A program made the position numbers and the translations under genes. Shown here piece after piece: positions 4,152-64,000 of a DNA stretch of 64,000 nt. How positions within the stretch are numbered: the first letter of the stretch is position 1; each line of letters begins with the position of its first letter. A model generated the notes under the pieces. That model saw only the letters and a program-made list of their open reading frames with translations. It was not told the origin of the DNA and did not search any database. The DNA is from Candidatus Thiodiazotropha sp. (lineage in GTDB: Bacteria > Pseudomonadota > Gammaproteobacteria > Chromatiales > Chromatiaceae), in the NCBI GenBank assembly GCA_040506195.1, contig JBEVXH010000010.1, positions 16,993 through 80,992 of the forward strand. The letters are read 5' to 3'.

Positions 4152-4910
4152 TCAGGTTTCCTGAACCGGACGCTTACCGGTTGGGAGATAGGTGCTCAAA
4201 AGCTGTTCCAGCACCCGTGGATTCATACCTTCCTGGATGCCAGAGATTGTTTCCATGATCAGTGACTTGTTGGTCTTCTCCATCGCACTGGCCCGGGCAA
4301 GTTTGTCAGAGATGGGCTGAGCGAAGGCATTCGCGATAACGGCACCATAGAGTGTAGTCAGCAAGGCGACTGCCATGGCGGGCCCGATACTGGCCGGATC
4401 CGACATGTTCGCCAGCATCTGCACCAAACCGACCAGGGTACCGATCATTCCCATGGCCGGCGCCATGGTTGCCATATTCTTGAACATAGTCTGGCCGACC
4501 TCGTGGCGTTGAATCGTCAGATCGATATCCTTGGTCAACAACTTATTGACCAAAGCCGGATCGTGTCCATCCACACACAGACCGATACCTTGCTGGAGGA
4601 AAGGATTGCCGATCTCCTGCCCCTCCAAGGCCAGTAATCCGTTTTTCCGTGCAATGTCAGCCAGCTCAACCGCCTCTTCGATGAGTTTCTTAGGGTCGTC
4701 GGTCTTGTAGAAAAATGCCTTCATACCGATACTGAAGGAGCCGAGAAAGTCACCCAGGGAGACCTGCATCAATGTCACCATGAATGTTCCCCCTCCAACA
4801 ATCAATAGTGAGGGAATATTCACAAACAGCATCACATCGCCACCTGAAGCAATAGCCCCGATAATGATGCCGAAACCACCCAATAGGCCGACCAGAGTAG
4901 CAATATCCAC
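4152..4910 (-). CDS. pomA: Flagellar stator A subunit (PomA/MotA)
   Basis: MDIATLVG start, PAMGMIGTLVGLVQML and AVALLTTLYG motifs. Confidence 0.85.
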   Translation of the reverse strand: MDIATLVGLLGGFGIIIGAIASGGDVMLFVNIPSLLIVGGGTFMVTLMQVSLGDFLGSFSIGMKAFFYKTDDPKKLIEEAVELADIARKNGLLALEGQEIGNPFLQQGIGLCVDGHDPALVNKLLTKDIDLTIQRHEVGQTMFKNMATMAPAMGMIGTLVGLVQMLANMSDPASIGPAMAVALLTTLYGAVIANAFAQPISDKLARASAMEKTNKSLIMETISGIQEGMNPRVLEQLLSTYLPTGKRPVQET

Positions 4911-5166
4911 TTATTAGTTCTCCGAATCCCCGTTACTTACTTTATGCATCTTTGAGAAGCTGGCTGAGAGCAACCCGTCCCGGGTCGATCACAGGCGTTA
5001 CGCTAAGATTCCAATCTGTTTGTTTTAGCGGTAGGAAATGGGCAAACTTTAATTCCTCAAGGACCTTAGGCGCTCACTCCGTAAGTCGTTTGAATCAGCA
5101 TTAGATTGCTGCAAACCACGCTATCATGAGCAGAATTGTTACAAAAAATTTTACATTACCGCCCAT

Positions 5167-6015
5167 ATGTCAAATGAAAAAAGTGTACTCATAACCGGCT
5201 GTTCCAGTGGTATCGGTCATTGCGTCGCAACTGGACTGAAAAACCGGGGTTATCGTGTCTTTGCCAGTGCCCGCAAAGAGCAGGATGTGGCCGATTTGCA
5301 GCGACAGGGATTCGAATCACTCCAGCTCGATCTCGATGACAGCAGTTCCATCGATCAGGCCGTGGATCAGGTGTTAAAAAGAACCGACGGACGCCTCTAT
5401 GGCCTCTTCAACAATGGCGCATACGGTCAGCCCGGAGCGGTTGAGGATCTGAGCCGCGAAGCGTTGCGGCGACAATTTGAAACCAATCTGTTCGGCTGGC
5501 ATGAGCTGACCTGCCGGATCATACCCACTATGCGCAAGCAGGGAGAGGGGCGAATCATTCAGAACAGTTCCATTCTGGGTTTTATCACTCTGCCCTATCG
5601 TGGGGCCTACGTGGCCAGTAAATATGCCCTGGAGGGATTGAGCGACACGCTGCGCTTGGAGCTTGTGGGAAGCGGTATTCACGTCTCACTGATCGAACCG
5701 GGACCGATCGAAAGCAAATTTCGGGAAAATGCCCATAGGATGTTTCAAAAACATATCGACAGCCCTCATTCAGTCCATCGGCAGTACTACCAGTCTTTGA
5801 TAAATCGTCTCGAAAAACAAGGACCTGCCGCTCCCTTTACCCTACCGGCGGAAGCGGTTTTGGAAAAGGTCATCCATGCCCTGCAAAGCAGCAGGCCCAA
5901 ACCGCGCTATCACGTCACCTTTCCTACCCACCTGTTTGCACTACTACGGCGACTGCTCAGCAGTCGCGCCATGGATCGCACCCTTCTCAGGGTCGGGGGG
6001 AGTGGCAGACGCTGA
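5167..6015 (+). CDS. Short-chain dehydrogenase/reductase (YbbO-like)
   Basis: ITGCSSGIG, NNGAYG and YVASK (YxxxK) motifs. Confidence 0.9.
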   Translation: MSNEKSVLITGCSSGIGHCVATGLKNRGYRVFASARKEQDVADLQRQGFESLQLDLDDSSSIDQAVDQVLKRTDGRLYGLFNNGAYGQPGAVEDLSREALRRQFETNLFGWHELTCRIIPTMRKQGEGRIIQNSSILGFITLPYRGAYVASKYALEGLSDTLRLELVGSGIHVSLIEPGPIESKFRENAHRMFQKHIDSPHSVHRQYYQSLINRLEKQGPAAPFTLPAEAVLEKVIHALQSSRPKPRYHVTFPTHLFALLRRLLSSRAMDRTLLRVGGSGRR

Positions 6016-58431: not shown

Positions 58432-59835
58432 TTATTGGACACGGCCATTGCTCAGCGGACGCGGATCGATGGTGGGGACTTCTGGCGTTTTCAGGGACGA
58501 TTGCCGACGGGCCGCGGCGCGTTGAAGCAAAGTCGCAATCGTGTCCGAGACCACCTCCTTGCGCACCCGGGTCTCGAACAACAGGTTCTCGATCTCCTTG
58601 TCGAGCTCGGCGATGGACTTGTCCGCGTGCTCGCGTGCCACCGCGGTCGCATAGACCTCCGGCACCTGGCGGCCGGAAAGCAACAAACGACGGGCATACA
58701 GCGCCTTCTCCACCGTGCGGGCCGTGCTGATCTCGGAAACCAGCCGTCCCATGATGAGGCTCTGTTCGGAGGCCGGCATATCCCGAATCGCCTCGATGAC
58801 CTGGCGGGTGATGGCAACGCCAGGGGCAGTAATATTGTCCAAGTTGGCCAGTGTCGGAGGTGTTGCGCCGGAGACCAGGCTCTGGATTTCCGTCGTTACG
58901 GTAGTCGCCTCCTGATTGAGCTTTGGCAGCAGTCCGGTACCGGGGATACTGTCCTTGCGGCAGGTATCACAGGTGGTGACAATATTTTCACCAACCACAT
59001 CGACGACCCAGTTACGCGCCTCGGTAGGCGTTGTCCAGATCTCAGTCAGGCGGGTGGCCGATGCAGGAGGCACCGGGCCTGCCGTCGTGATCGGACGATT
59101 CATATTGATGTTGTACCCGGCCTTGACGATGTCGCCGGTAAATTCCAGCACCGGCTGTCCGGAGCCCCCGGCCTGCCTACCGATCCAGGGCACGCCATTG
59201 TCCCCGTTAGCGGTCTCGACGGCGTCCTTGGCGGTTACGGCATCATTACCACCAACACCCATCTGAAGCTTCCAGTCATTGCCTTTGGACAGCGTGATGA
59301 GATCCGCATAGGGGTTCTTGCCTTTGGCGATCTCCGCTTCCATCTGTTTGCAGGACATGGTGGCGAGTTGCATGGTCTCTTCCGCTTTGAGCAGGGCATT
59401 CTGGAATAGATCATAAAGTCCTGGATTGGCTCGCTGCAGGATGAGTGCCGGAAGTGATGCAATGGCCGCACTCGCTGCAGCCGTCATGGCATTCATCATG
59501 TTATCGATGCCTGAACCGATATCGTTCAGGGTATTGGTGACGGCCGCCACCGGATCGAACCGACCGCAGCTATAGCCCAGACCCAATTGGGCCGAACCGC
59601 CGAGGGTGACTGAGGTCACGGCTGGATTGGCGGGTACGGAGACGGGTTCCGCCCCGCCGATCTTGTAGTACCAGAGACTGTCCTCGGTGGGTGCCTGGGT
59701 GGCTTGCACCAGCGTGTATGGAGCAAACATCAGGCAAAGTCCGATGAACAGCAATGAGTAACGGGGTTGGCCTTTTATGGGTGAGCATTTCTTATACAAC
59801 ATGACTCTCTTGATCATGGTGGATAGGGAAACCAA
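58432..59835 (-). CDS. Integrating conjugative element protein, PFL_4711 family
   Basis: LWYYKIGGAEP, LILQRANPGLYDL, GVPWIG. Confidence 0.85.
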   Translation of the reverse strand: MVSLSTMIKRVMLYKKCSPIKGQPRYSLLFIGLCLMFAPYTLVQATQAPTEDSLWYYKIGGAEPVSVPANPAVTSVTLGGSAQLGLGYSCGRFDPVAAVTNTLNDIGSGIDNMMNAMTAAASAAIASLPALILQRANPGLYDLFQNALLKAEETMQLATMSCKQMEAEIAKGKNPYADLITLSKGNDWKLQMGVGGNDAVTAKDAVETANGDNGVPWIGRQAGGSGQPVLEFTGDIVKAGYNINMNRPITTAGPVPPASATRLTEIWTTPTEARNWVVDVVGENIVTTCDTCRKDSIPGTGLLPKLNQEATTVTTEIQSLVSGATPPTLANLDNITAPGVAITRQVIEAIRDMPASEQSLIMGRLVSEISTARTVEKALYARRLLLSGRQVPEVYATAVAREHADKSIAELDKEIENLLFETRVRKEVVSDTIATLLQRAAARRQSSLKTPEVPTIDPRPLSNGRVQ

Positions 59836-60926
59836 TCGAGTGAATACAAAAACATCTGCCCTCGGCGGTTACAACACTTGTAGGGACGCCAGAGATTCCA
59901 GGCATAGTCCCCGGCCCCATCCACACGCCCGCCACCCCAACCGCTGAAACTGGCGAGGTCATTGCTACCAAATACACTGCAGGTCAATTCCGGCAGGGGC
60001 ACGAGCATCTGCCAGGTGCCGGTGGAGCGGTCCTTTTCCCGCAACGGACCCGGCGGCCAGACCCGCTGACCTGAAAAGCTCGGGATCCAATGATTGACCA
60101 GTCCGCCAAGCCCGTCGGGGATCCAATTGTCGATGATTCTGATCAGGTCGTTGTGCATATAAGGCGCACCGGAGAGCGGTACATAGACATGGGGCTGACC
60201 GGCACGGGTGACGATATCCCCGGCCCGCTGCGCATTGATAGCGGCAGCTTTGGGCTCTTCAGCCTGAGTGGTCCAGCCGGTGCGAGGATAGACCCCACCC
60301 CAGGTCTGCAGTGGCCAGGTACCGATTTCGCGCAATCCGGGCAACAGGCTGGCCGGATAGAAGATCTCCGGCACCTCCTGTCGCCAGGACAAGGCATCCA
60401 GGCCCGATTGGAAGTAAGGGAAGAAAGGGGTTGTCTGGGATTGGCAGAGCAACCCCACTCCGGTGGACACACTGGCCAATGAGGCGACCGGGTGGCCGAT
60501 GGCATCGGTCTCACGAAACACCAGGTTGCGGTGTTCCCTGGGCTCGGTACTACCCTCGGTGCGATTGCCAGCACTGTCGATAGGAATAGGCAGCAGGCTT
60601 CCCAGCAGAGTCGTTGCCGCAGTCTTCTGGGCAAGCCCCAAGGTTGCGCGGATCTCCACCCAGGGATTGCCTCCCAGTTCGTTGTAGCTGCTGACCACCA
60701 AGTCCGGATTGTAGTGCCCGACCTTGAGCGAGGCCCTGACACTGCAACCGGACCAGGAACAGCGCAACCAGAAACAGGTGCCGATCGGCATCCAGCGCAT
60801 GCAGGAAAATGCCGCCGTTGTCGTCTGGGCAACGATCTGTGGTGTGGTCGTTGTACCGGAGAATCCTTTGACGGGAACCCATAGTGCAATGGCAAGACAG
60901 AACGATAGACACCTCCCGTGGATCAT
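59814..60926 (-). CDS. Integrating conjugative element protein, PFL_4710 family (TraU-like)
   Basis: GTCFWLRC...KVGHYNPDLVVSSY, WGGVYPRTG, AWNLWRPYKCC. Confidence 0.85.
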   Translation of the reverse strand: MIHGRCLSFCLAIALWVPVKGFSGTTTTPQIVAQTTTAAFSCMRWMPIGTCFWLRCSWSGCSVRASLKVGHYNPDLVVSSYNELGGNPWVEIRATLGLAQKTAATTLLGSLLPIPIDSAGNRTEGSTEPREHRNLVFRETDAIGHPVASLASVSTGVGLLCQSQTTPFFPYFQSGLDALSWRQEVPEIFYPASLLPGLREIGTWPLQTWGGVYPRTGWTTQAEEPKAAAINAQRAGDIVTRAGQPHVYVPLSGAPYMHNDLIRIIDNWIPDGLGGLVNHWIPSFSGQRVWPPGPLREKDRSTGTWQMLVPLPELTCSVFGSNDLASFSGWGGGRVDGAGDYAWNLWRPYKCCNRRGQMFLYSLDWFPYPP

Positions 60927-61408
60927 CGCTTACCTTCCCGCCGCCATGCCCGGTAATGTGTATGTGCAGTCTGCACATCGGTTACGCCATAGACGACTGC
61001 CTGGCCATCGAAAACAATGGCTGGATAGCGATCCACGCCATACTGCATCGCCTTCGCCAAACCCATTGCGGCATGTTGCATCCGCGTTCGATCTTCCTGA
61101 CGCAGTTGCTGGAAGCGTTGCTGAACGACTCGTTTGGATTGCTCGGGATCAGCCGGAAGGCCTTCGGACAGCTTCGCCTCGGTACGCCGGATGCCATCCA
61201 GTTCATAGACATGGAATTCATTTTCCCCACGAAGTGACTGCCTGTTGATACCCGCCTCACCGGCTATAGGTGTATCTGTCGTGGTAAATACTTCTACGAG
61301 GCGTGGATGAACCTCTACCGGTTGACTCGCTTGTATAACTCCAGCGAACAAGGCCAATACTATCCGTACCGGCACAACAAAGCGTATTGAATGTGAATTC
61401 TTGGTCAT
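60923..61408 (-). CDS. Integrating conjugative element protein, PFL_4709 family
   Basis: Signal peptide, VEVFTT, AMQYGVDRYPAIVFDGQAVVYGVTD. Confidence 0.85.
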   Translation of the reverse strand: MTKNSHSIRFVVPVRIVLALFAGVIQASQPVEVHPRLVEVFTTTDTPIAGEAGINRQSLRGENEFHVYELDGIRRTEAKLSEGLPADPEQSKRVVQQRFQQLRQEDRTRMQHAAMGLAKAMQYGVDRYPAIVFDGQAVVYGVTDVQTAHTHYRAWRREGKR

Positions 61409-61803
61409 GTATACCAATAGACCGTCATAAAGTGATGGGCTATCGTGAATCATGCGTCAGTCCAAGGAAACAGGAAACTCGATCAAGATGCGGCGTGGTT
61501 TATACCTGGCGGATTCAACCAAGGATGAAAAATCGCCTTAATAGACGACTATTGGCTCCGCCCGATTGCTTTAAAGCGGGCGTGACAATCAATGCACTAG
61601 TAGACTGAATAGATGTCTCAAAAGTGCCGGAGTTGTGGACCAATCGGTTGACGGCAGGAAAACTGCCGTTCCCGGCTCGGAGTAAGAAATGTTGCAGTGC
61701 GTCAGCGATGTGCCATAACCGGCCGTTCAAGGAATTGATCTACGCGCTACACAGATAGAGAACATTATGAGAATATTCGTCTCTCCACGGAAAGGAGAGC
61801 CAC

Positions 61804-63337
61804 ATGCATCATGCAGCGATCAAGGACTGGTCATCATACAGCCCGCCATATCAGCGGCACCGGCCAGAACGGACACTTCTTTATCAAATCATTGAGCAGC
61901 ACTATCCGGAATTCCGGGATATCATGGCGGCTCAGGGCAGGTCCCTACCCCGGCATGTTCAGCAGGAATTCTCGGAGTATCACAAGTGTGGACGGCTGGA
62001 AAATGGATTCCTGCGAGTGCAATGCACCGAGTGCCACCATGAACACCTGGTCGTGTTCAGTTGTAAAAAGCGGGGATTCTGTCCGAGCTGCGGAGCGCGG
62101 CGAATGGCGGAAAGCGCCGCACTGCTGGTCGATGAGATTTTGCCGGAACAGCCTATACGCCAGTGGGTGCTGAGTTTTCCATTTCAATTGCGGTTCCTGT
62201 TCGCCAGCCGCCCGGAGCTGATGGGCCAGGTGCTGGGTATTGTTTACCGGGCGATATCTTCGCACTTGATCAAGAAGACAGGTTTCGCCCGAAAGACCGC
62301 GCAAACCGGCGCGGTGACGCTGATCCAGCGATTCGGCAGTGCGTTGAACCTCAATGTTCACTTTCACATGCTTTTCCTCGACGGTGTCTACACCGAAACC
62401 CAATACTGCAAAACACGATTTCAGCGCACCAACGCCCCGGATCAACAGGAATTGACTGATCTGGTGCATACCATCAGCTACCGGGTTGCATGCTTTCTTG
62501 AGCGCGAAGGCATCCTGGAGCGCGATGAGGAAAACAGTTACCTGAATCTGGAACATGCGGACGAAGACCCGATGCAGCAGGTGATTGGCAGCTCGGTCAG
62601 TTACCGAATCGCAGTGGGACCACAGCAAGGACGCAAGGTATTCACGTTACAGACCATTCCGGCCTGGGAGGAGGATGACCGGTTTGCACAGGTGGCGAAA
62701 GAGTCCGGATTCAGTTTGCATGCCGGTGTCGCGGCGCAGGCCTGGGAGCGACAGAAGCTTGAGCGCCTGTGCCGTTACATGACGAGACCAGCGGTCTCCG
62801 AGAATCGGCTTTCACTGACACCCTCGGGCAATGTCCGCTACGACGTGAATGGAATCACAAGTGTCGCGGGCGCAGGGATGCGCAGGAGCGACCCAGCTCA
62901 AGACGCCCTACAGCGATGGAACCACGCATGTCATTTTCGAGCCGCTGGATTTCATCGCCAGACTGGCCGCCCTGGTTCCGAAGCCCAGGGTCAACCTGAC
63001 CCGATTCCATGGTGTCTTTGCACCCAATAGCAAACATCGAGTCGATGTAACACCAGCTAAACGGGGAAAGGGCCGAACCCACCAGGAAAGCGAAGACAGG
63101 ACGCCGGAGCAGAGACACAAAGCGATGAACTGGGCGCAACGCTTGAAGCGAGTGTTTAACATCGATGTGTCGATCTGCCAGAAGTGCGGCGGTGAAGCCA
63201 GGGCGATTGCCTGTATCGAGGATCAAGCGGTGATCGACAAGATTCTGGATCACCTCATGAAGAAAGGCGCATTACCAGCACCACCCGAATTACTGCCAGC
63301 TGCGCGGGCCTCGCCCCAGGCAGAGTGGTTTGCATAG
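61804..63337 (+). pseudogene. IS91-family (ISCR-like) rolling-circle transposase interrupted by a 52-bp insertion
   Basis: CGRL...SCKKRGFCPSC zinc-binding region, NVHFH (HUH), LCRY. GNVRY|QLKTPY is split by 62842-62893; removing the insert restores a 493-aa frame. Confidence 0.9.
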
Positions 63338-63576
63338 CGGCATCAGACCGGAAGTTTACCCCCGCCATGACTTCACATAACGACAACTGATTTTAATGGG
63401 TTGCCTGATTGCTTGCGGCCTAGTCAAAACCAGAAGGTCTAAAAAAGTCAAACAGTGAGAAAGCTCAGTGCGGAATATGAATGCTGGCTGGAATTACCCT
63501 GAGTTACTCTTGTTTCGGGCGGGGCTCTGAAGGTCTGGTTCCGGCTTGATATGCCAGGGTGTTGCGTTTATTCTTC

Positions 63577-64000
63577 TCGTATAGACGCCCCTATTGTCAA
63601 CCTGAATTTTCACTCTCTTGATCGTAGAGCGGGTGTAGACCTTGGACTAACATCCTCGTATTCGCGTGCTGGTTAACGCATTAAGATCTGTCCGTTTTGG
63701 GGTTACCACAACCTATACACAGGCGCTTTCGTTACCGATTTCTAAAGAAGGTTACGTGGGCTTCCCAATCTCTGTCTTATCCTCTGGACCAATCCGTTTA
63801 TTCAAGCAGATGACAATCTGGTTTTATATCGCGTATTCCTGGCATTGCTTCTTTAGGCGGCCACCTTCTGCAGTGACTCCCAGATAAAGCCCACCATTTC
63901 CCGGGCACAGGCGACTTTCACTTTGTTTGGATGCTTGCCCGCGATCAACAAGCGGTTGCCCTTTTTGTTCAAACGCTTCAAGCAACGATCGGCAATACTC
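63577..64000 (-). mobile_element. IS110-family element: transposase C-terminus (63853 to beyond 64000) plus ~275-nt 3' non-coding end
   Basis: Not in the ORF track. Manual translation gives ...RLNKKGNRLLIAGKHPNKVKVACAREMVGFIWESLQKVAA*, a typical IS110 C-terminus. The end resembles TTGACAATAGGGGCGTCTATACGA. Confidence 0.72.

Follow-up and report, generated by a model that had tools for sequence, protein, structure and literature searches.

Why should an insertion sequence (IS) of the IS110 family lie within a few bases of the end of an IS91-type rolling-circle element? The question is raised by a stretch of 64,000 nucleotides from Candidatus Thiodiazotropha sp., called the window here in its whole length and forming part of contig C10 of a 22-contig draft genome, in which an IS91/ISCR-like transposase gene is followed by the right end of an IS110-family element. 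The first-pass annotation of this DNA had claimed that the IS110 element sits precisely within the origin end (oriIS) of the IS91/ISCR element, and our analysis bore this out, as both junctions could be read and uninterrupted copies of the target exist. We favour the explanation, with a probability of about 0.85, that the element is an IS1111-style member of the IS110 family with a guide RNA programmed for the conserved terminal motif of IS91/ISCR origins, ...TTTAT-n-CTTC|CT|ATAC.

The IS110-family element was 1,491 bp long and lay on the minus strand from window position 63578 to about 65068, so that only its last 423 bp fell within the window; the remainder was read in locus L001, whose positions plus 61899 give window positions. 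The sequence GCGTTTATTCTTC at 63564-63576 started 227 bp past the TAG stop (63335-63337) of the IS91-like gene and was directly followed by TCG and then by TATAGACGCCCCTATTGTCAA, the right end of the IS110-family element. On the plus strand the near junction read GCGTTTATTCTT-CT-CG-TATAGACGCCCC..., and the far junction, in contig sequence beyond the window, read ...GGGGCGTCTATA-TCTT-CT-ATAC-TTAAAAG. The terminal oriIS motif of an ISCR-like IS91-family element had been entered at a CT dinucleotide, in the arrangement GCGTTTATTCTT[CT]-IS-[CT]ATAC, which places the IS110 element 4 bp away from the IS91 terminus. The first CT lay at 63576-63577 and the second, beyond the window, at about 65069-65070, where it is followed by ATAC, the true IS91 terminus. 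These two bases (AG on the other strand) were the only ones common to both junctions, also across loci with differing flanks, and joining both flanks of occupied sites through one CT restored the exact uninterrupted motif; the crossover was therefore placed at CT, and there was no target duplication beyond it. The insertion had been placed directly after position 63576 by the first-pass annotation; the site was right, and the exact point is corrected here to the shared CT. The displaced CTATAC, which the same annotation expected at the far flank, was present there directly after the IS end.

Both ends of the element carried a perfect 12-bp subterminal inverted repeat, TATAGACGCCCC / GGGGCGTCTATA. 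The right end, at 63578-63591 on the minus strand, consists of the CG extension and the repeat (GGGGCGTCTATA on that strand), which is a perfect inverted repeat with L001 3154-3165. The repeat was conserved among relatives, and its right-end copy was invariant or nearly so in 27 aligned relatives. Outside the repeats, the element extends by AAGA (4 bp) at its left end and by CG (2 bp) at its right end; the 2-bp core brings the total to 8 bp, and with the core counted as part of the left end, the extensions are 6 + 2. The orientation of the element was fixed, and its transposase gene converges on the IS91 gene. Two other ways of dividing the junctions were rejected. A GA core would leave, on rejoining, two extra bases that have no counterpart in empty sites, and the assignment of left ATAGAAGA and right GAAGnATAAA to the IS itself is contradicted by uninterrupted IS91 ends, which hold the joined motif.

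These empty sites were found in six uninterrupted IS91 relatives from the same bacterial family, which end in (G)GTGTTTATTCTTCCTATAC or near variants 260-330 bp past the last aligned transposase residue and carry the joined motif GGTGTTTATTCTTCCTATAC; examples of their ends are GGGTGTTTATTCTTCCTATAC, GGTTATTCTTCTTATAC and GGTTTATACTGCCTATAC. The published 22-mer of the ISCR1 oriIS is GTGGTTTATACTTCCTATACCC (PMC13023784), and it is matched both by the reconstructed site of our own copy, GCGTTTATTCTTCTATAC, and by GGTGTTTATTCTTCCTATAC of the relatives. The reconstructed site is one base shorter than the common form, reading CTTC-TATAC. At two related loci, L018 and L034, the right flank was the exact reverse complement of the ISCR1 22-mer.

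Occupied and empty target sites coexist in the genome of one complete Nitrospirales chromosome (G202; loci L202-L213). The 100-bp flank of its IS110 copy belongs to a repeat present in 32 copies, an IS91-type end that ends in ...GGCCTTTTAAAATTCCTATTCCC, and only 2 of the 32 copies adjoin an IS110 element. Eleven further copies, at 11 other sites, were uninterrupted, reading GGGAAT-AG-GAATTTTAAAAGG (GGGAAT[AG]GAATTTT) with unrelated DNA outside. A Y2 transposase gene was found at 4 of these 11 sites, and the others were stubs of about 130-300 bp. Since this repeat family includes both kinds, the lineage targets IS91-type origin ends whether these are complete or transposase-less.

The same target recurs among the relatives of the element. 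Forty-five related loci were collected from species-representative genomes, with transposase identities of 43-92%; most were from Gammaproteobacteria, and some from Nitrospirales, Acidobacteriota and others. Read in the orientation of the transposase, the left flank almost always ended in (G)TAT-AG and was followed by AAGA and the repeat, and at the other end the right repeat was followed by CG-AG and then by a related but variable GAAGnATAAAnGCC. The homologues, whose targets it had been suggested to survey, thus proved to share the target of our own copy instead of having unrelated ones. A convergent Y2 transposase gene was found beside 10 of the 33 related genome loci with a right flank, in nine cases at the expected short distance, and four more loci (L009, L012, L038, L046) share flank DNA with Y2-bearing loci. 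A scan of metagenomes with the 16-base right junction gave at least 80 loci; counted by eye, about 45 of the 80 matches listed had an oriIS-like flank. The same junction was present in more than 100 independent assemblies. Where flanks from different contexts were compared, their similarity ended 43-121 bp from the junction, and the IS91 end stubs at occupied sites were transposase-less, 50-300 bp long and in many cases situated between housekeeping genes. We had considered that an IS91 gene might stand beside every relative; this was rejected, as tblastn, a purpose-built hidden Markov model and Pfam found ordinary genes in many flanks.

Copies numbered one to three per genome in the five genomes checked. 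In one assembled genome, two loci (L012 and L013) carried IS copies that were 99.8% identical over 1,486 bp, while their IS91 ends were 83% identical and their outer flanks unrelated, a pattern that points to separate insertions of a single active element into diverged target copies and not to a copied composite. The remaining loci among the metagenome matches listed share the IS end and have quite different flanks. In L081, L125, L121, L140, L122, L147, L128, L143, L154, L157, L101 and L096, the identical right end (CG + TATAGACGCCCC, core CT) sits at other recurring sequences, such as ...ATGCCGCGCAAAG|CT and ...CCCCGGTCGAAG|CT, presumably because the guides of these sub-lineages have been reprogrammed, as expected in this family.

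Two single loci may be described here. In L013, from a metagenome-assembled genome, a second and unrelated IS110-family element (at about 4227-5638) was found in the same IS91 copy, 314 bp deeper and close to the 3' end of the transposase gene; its 354-aa frame holds both Pfam domains of the family and is 26% identical to the transposase of our element. As L013 carries both, two different IS110-family lineages have hit one IS91 copy, and IS91-type elements seem to be chosen repeatedly by different lineages of this family. In L011, a degenerate second IS left end, TATAGACTCCCC, preceded by TACAGAAGA, was found 277 bp upstream of the left end of the full copy (2403-2414 and 2680-2691), and may have been left behind by a tandem or nested insertion.

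The selection of this target would be explained by a predicted RNA. The 3' non-coding regions of 27 loci were aligned (alignment A1) and were strongly conserved, and RNAalifold predicted on this alignment 33 base pairs, nine of them with compensatory changes. The conserved non-coding RNA region, of about 208 nt, occupies 63600-63807 on the minus strand and resembles bridge RNAs and seekRNAs, with a closing stem that is joined by two stem-loops containing internal loops. The first stem-loop has a variable hairpin with an unpaired stretch on either side. The 5' side of this putative target loop (63742-63754, minus strand) holds the guide UAACCUUCUUUAG, in which CCUUCU is complementary to the core and the right target half, AGAAG, on the transposase-sense strand. 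The 3' side (63712-63718, minus strand) holds the guide GUAUAGG, which has the same sense as the left target half and core, GTAT[AG], and would therefore pair with the other strand. The two guides, CCUUCU at RNA positions 57-62 and GUAUAGG at 90-96, overlap at the core of the target. The second stem-loop, the putative donor loop (63654-63688, minus strand), carries GAUCUU (63683-63688), the complement of AAGAT at the IS left end, and AUACGAGG (63654-63661), which reads in the same sense as ATACG of the IS right end and the core AG. In the RNA as predicted from sequence, the loops thus complement both the target and the ends of the IS, a property of the IS110 family.

The guides also vary together with the sequences that they would read. 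Across the 27 loci, the right guide matched its own flank at a mean of 6.37 of 9 positions, as compared to 5.27 +/- 0.18 in shuffled pairings, and none of 5000 shuffles reached the observed value. An example is L016, with guide GAACGUCU and flank AGACGTTC, and the guides of L021, L022, L017 and L009 fit the unusual flanks of these loci. The left guide covaries with the left flank in the same way, GAAUAG standing with AATAG in L017 and GGAUAG with GATAG in L020, L021 and L035. In the donor loop, AAUA(C/U)GAGG changes between C and U in step with the C or T of the IS right end, CTATA(C/T)GAG, in L019, L020, L021 and L035. The proposal that the non-coding RNA would hold target-complementary loops is therefore confirmed to the extent that the loop segments match the target and covary with it, and the wider idea of an RNA-guided IS aimed at rolling-circle origins gains support from the far flank, the targets of the homologues and this covariation.

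A nearly invariant TTGACA was observed at 63594-63599 on the minus strand, 2-3 bp inside the right inverted repeat (A1 columns 316-321). It could be the -35 box of a promoter that is formed at the circle junction or reads outward, or else part of a 3' RNA stem. No -10 box at a workable spacing from it was found in the joined ends, and in the RNAalifold model its GAC pairs with GUC of the repeat.

The 3' end of the transposase gene occupies 63853-64000 of the window on the minus strand (stop at 63853-63855), and the gene runs on to about window position 64971. Its product P0001, the 372-aa translation of L001:1957-3072 (minus strand), matched Pfam PF01548 (DEDD_Tnp_IS110, E = 1.7e-10) and PF02371 (Transposase_20, E = 7.7e-20), and it scored 204 bits, over a cut-off of 140, against the NCBIfam model NF033542, 'IS110 family RNA-guided transposase'. 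It thus has both the N-terminal DEDD/RuvC-like and the C-terminal domain by which the family is defined, and judged from these sequence matches, the membership of the IS110 family is solid. Candidate residues, picked by eye and not from an alignment to a solved structure, are D11, E62, D100, D103 and the SSG of EYSSGG. Among 72,556 plasmid records no relative of P0001 above 35% identity was found, the best plasmid-borne ones having 33-35%. The IS1111 group is marked by subterminal inverted repeats, a non-coding region downstream of the gene and a top-strand guide 5' of the bottom-strand guide (PMC11187229). In our element the subterminal repeats were perfect and 12 bp long, inside the 11-13 bp range, the non-coding DNA from the transposase stop to the right end measured about 275 bp and that ahead of the start about 95 bp, and the order of the guides and their overlap in the target were those of IS1111. 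The likeness to IS4321/IS5075 noted in the first-pass annotation was thus apt, the element showing the IS1111 hallmarks of PMC11187229.

Several points weigh against the explanation given at the outset or narrow it. The IS1111 norm is for extensions of 7 or 6 + 3 bp and a transposase of 330-350 aa (PMC11187229); our element deviates from it with 4 + 2 bp and a 2-bp core, which is 8 instead of 9-10, and with a longer protein of 372 aa. IS1111 transposases also have a C-terminal GL-P----S(t)G motif, and the stretch of P0001 in this place reads GMDIREYSSG and has no proline. It is IS1111-style by structure, and its membership of IS1111 proper is not established: because of the deviations in extensions and protein length, we call it IS1111-style and not a proven IS1111 member. 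The RNA had no Rfam match when the whole element was searched at a permissive threshold, and single-sequence folding was no better than that of shuffles (z = -0.05), so that the case for structure comes from covariation. In our own copy and in L044, the relative closest to it, pairing of the right guide is shifted by one base as compared to most relatives, which goes together with the one-base-shorter target CTTC-TATAC, and four loci (L015, L027, L030, L038) are a poor fit to the right flank that they have at present. That the element forms a circle, and that the RNA is expressed and bound by the transposase, we infer by analogy. Most oriIS-like sites among the metagenome matches listed had no IS91 transposase nearby, a Y2 sequence standing near the junction in only seven of the 80, at 208-783 bp. 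The target is therefore best described as IS91-type end sequences, complete or stubs, and not as IS91 elements as such. The IS end that now abuts CTATAC, GGGGCGTCTATATCTT, moreover resembles the displaced GGGTGTTTATTCTTC, or GCGTTTATTCTT in our own copy.

The last two points each lead to a different explanation of the locus. The resemblance of the ends would fit a form of mimicry in which the IS left end GGGGCGTCTATATCTT and the retained CTATAC rebuild a usable IS91 origin; the IS91 transposase could then still begin rolling-circle transfer from the old nick site, taking the IS110 element with it, or further IS110 copies could use the rebuilt site as a target. The insertion would in that case live off the mobility of IS91 and not end it. 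When the last 20 nt of the IS were compared with the displaced origin, the mean score was 4.17 against 2.25 +/- 0.64 in shuffles, and 31 of 3000 shuffles reached the observed value; in our own copy the pair is GCGTTTAT-TCTT and GCGTCTATATCTT, the regions compared being L001 3150-3175 (GGGGCGTCTATATCTT-CTATAC) and window 63555-63577 (GCGTTTAT-TCTT-CTATAC). The partial second left end in L011, 277 bp upstream of the full copy, and the many copies beside a mere IS91 end stub of 43-121 bp would also fit. However, the test was devised after the resemblance had been seen and reaches only about 1 in 100, and near the core some of the likeness is to be expected, since related guide loops read both donor and target. 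The 99.8% identical IS copies in 83% identical IS91 ends indicate separate insertions and not a moving composite, and the Nitrospirales chromosome has many stubs without IS110, so that co-mobilisation is not needed to explain stubs. We consider a rebuilt origin unlikely, and it is similarly doubtful that the IS left end has evolved to imitate the displaced IS91 origin, so that the composite end, with GGGGCGTCTATATCTT-CTATAC instead of GGGTGTTTATTCTTC-CTATAC at the old nick site, would still be recognised by the IS91 transposase and the IS91 machinery would copy and spread the RNA-guided element; if true, it would be a transposon that both targets and hijacks the origin of another.

The scarcity of IS91 transposases might instead mean that what is hit is some short repeat or hairpin of intergenic DNA, generic in nature and merely resembling IS91 ends, as with REP-targeting (repetitive extragenic palindromic) ISPa11 or ISPpu9; the link to IS91 would then be incidental. 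Most oriIS-like sites among the metagenome matches listed had no Y2 gene within 2-3 kb and lay 60-520 bp from ordinary genes, and at about a dozen genome loci with 2 kb of flank ordinary chromosomal genes likewise stood in place of the Y2 gene. Ten oriIS-like metagenome loci without Y2, searched with Pfam, gave nine clear matches to ordinary genes and one sub-threshold match; genes at Y2-less loci included RsmI, E2 acyltransferase, FadL, M3 peptidase, cytochrome c and others. Several Y2-less flanks nevertheless match the terminal 29-128 bp of Y2-bearing flanks, both in metagenomes (L090, L105 and L132 with L114; L110 and L142 with L151) and in genomes (L012 with L036, L009 with L030, L038 with L022, L046 with L023). 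In one chromosome, a single repeat family holds both transposase-bearing copies and stubs, and the flank conserves ATAAAnGCC past the reach of the guide and equals the published ISCR1 oriIS in L018 and L034, all of which makes a generic repeat very unlikely. A chance juxtaposition or an assembly artefact could be suspected because the element is single-copy in its own 22-contig draft genome. Both junctions lie within one contig, however, a known motif results when the flanks are joined, the site has its complement in the guide RNA, and the junction is seen again in dozens of independent loci and in more than 100 independent assemblies; the probability of such an accident is close to negligible.

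If the element is, as we favour, an IS1111-style IS110 member guided to IS91/ISCR origins, its movement can be pictured by analogy with published work on ISEc11, ISPa11, ISKpn4 and IS621. The element would excise as a circle, whose junction would read ...CTATACG-AG-AAGATATAG..., the RNA would pair the circle junction with the target, and the transposase would exchange strands at CT. IS91 ends would offer the element safe landing sites that are multi-copy and travel horizontally. According to published work, rolling-circle transfer of such an element cannot start without the origin region, about 100 bp of DNA on the downstream side of the gene (PMC13023784). After the insertion, CTATAC is all that stays at the IS91 terminus, the remaining origin being shifted 1.5 kb away. 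Because the nick-proximal 4-6 bp are split from the remaining origin of about 100 bp, origin function would probably be lost, and it is plausible that the insertion disables or immobilises that IS91 copy.

Part of this picture is known already, namely the seekRNA/bridge RNA mechanism, described in 2024, and the IS1111 habit of landing in the ends of other mobile elements, as IS4321/IS5075 do. Like our element, IS4321/IS5075 are IS1111-style with subterminal inverted repeats, and they enter the terminal recognition sequence of another transposon at a single position and in a single orientation, with no target duplication; in contrast to them, the victim here is a rolling-circle HUH element hit at its origin end and not the inverted repeat of a DDE transposon, and the terminal extensions are shorter. 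Siddiquee et al. 2024 (PMC11187229) described ISEc11, ISPa11, ISKpn4 and ISPst6, which share with our element the downstream non-coding region and subterminal repeats of 11-13 bp. In IS1111-family seekRNAs the top-strand match likewise comes first, 5' of its bottom-strand counterpart, and both cover a common part of the target (PMC11187229). Those four elements differ in their targets, which are REP sequences, attC sites or other sequences (PMC11187229), and in having proteins of 330-350 aa and extensions of 7 or 6 + 3 bp, whereas ours, at 372 aa and 4 + 2 bp with a 2-bp core, is known from sequence alone. The interrupted element compares with ISCR1 in that the site is about 230-330 bp downstream of the transposase gene and the oriIS motif matches; it differs in being an environmental ISCR-clade-Ia-like relative with a frameshifted transposase gene. 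IS621, the subject of the 2024 work of Durrant et al. and Hiraizumi et al., reportedly has a CT core and a two-loop bridge RNA, with one loop for the target and a second for the joined IS ends; its RNA is said to be encoded upstream of the gene, with no subterminal repeats and a natural target of REP type. Our element would share its two-loop logic and a CT core common to donor and target, and would differ from it in the position of the RNA, the subterminal repeats, the reversed order of the guides and the target.

What is new here is that the natural target of an IS1111-style element is the IS91/ISCR origin end. Full-text literature searches combining these terms gave no report of an IS110/IS1111 insertion at IS91 or oriIS. 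REP sequences, integron attC sites and Tn21-type inverted repeats are among the targets known for IS1111/IS110 elements, and the rolling-circle IS91/ISCR origin end is now added to them as a natural target class. The element is a further clear case of a mobile element that uses the conserved end of another as a safe and mobile landing pad. ISCR elements assemble and move antibiotic-resistance regions. Since the guides and flanks of some relatives equal the ISCR1 origin, these relatives may serve as a ready-made natural RNA-guided recombinase for studying ISCR origin function, and the diverged copies with covarying guides and targets are a natural data set for the pairing rules of IS1111-type guides. 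In some genomes, IS91 end stubs that lack a transposase are common, a point of consequence for their annotation.

The interrupted IS91 element is damaged elsewhere as well. The 5' part of its IS91/ISCR-like rolling-circle (Y2 HUH) transposase gene lies at 61804-62840 on the plus strand and matches Pfam Zn_Tnp_IS91 (PF14319, the N-terminal zinc-binding domain) and Y2_Tnp (PF04986). The best NCBIfam match of this 349-aa 5' fragment was ISCR clade Ia, at 443 bits and short of the 925-bit cut-off; the matches to ISCR clade Ia and to IS91 both stayed under their cut-offs because the protein is a fragment. The 5' part is 82% identical to L052, an intact and uninterrupted relative of 535 aa. A frameshifting insertion of 52 nt at 62841-62892 (boundaries +/- 2 nt) separates it from the 3' part, as seen from a 52-nt gap in the pairwise DNA alignment with L052 and from the change of frame +2 to +3 at this point in tblastn. 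The 3' part (62893-63337, up to the TAG stop) matches the C-terminal part of Y2_Tnp and is 84% identical to L052 residues 389-534, and it is followed at 63338-63575 by the 3' non-coding region, that is, the inner oriIS ending in GCGTTTATTCTT, as assigned from the position of the motif in uninterrupted relatives and from the match to the ISCR1 22-mer. Because of the frameshifting insertion, this IS91 copy is dead regardless of the IS110 insertion. At another locus, L007, the neighbouring IS91-type transposase frame was intact (547 aa). The 52-nt insertion had no further copies in this genome, and it holds the short dyads GTCGC...GCGAC and GCGCA...TGCGC (seen by eye). A second IS91-like fragment of the same genome is situated on contig C6.

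The neighbourhood of the two elements gave two minor observations. A TIR-domain gene (Pfam TIR_2, ThsB_TIR; L001 3211-3600, about window 65110-65499) starts 35 bp past the IS91 terminus CTATAC. ISCR1 origin ends reportedly carry outward promoters, and the IS91 end may once have read outward into the TIR-domain gene, from which the IS110 insertion now separates it. On the other side, genes of conjugative transfer, TraU and DUF1525, lie at 59814-61453 on the minus strand, immediately upstream of the IS91-like element, and since they adjoin it, both nested insertion sequences are placed at the edge of a region resembling a conjugative element.

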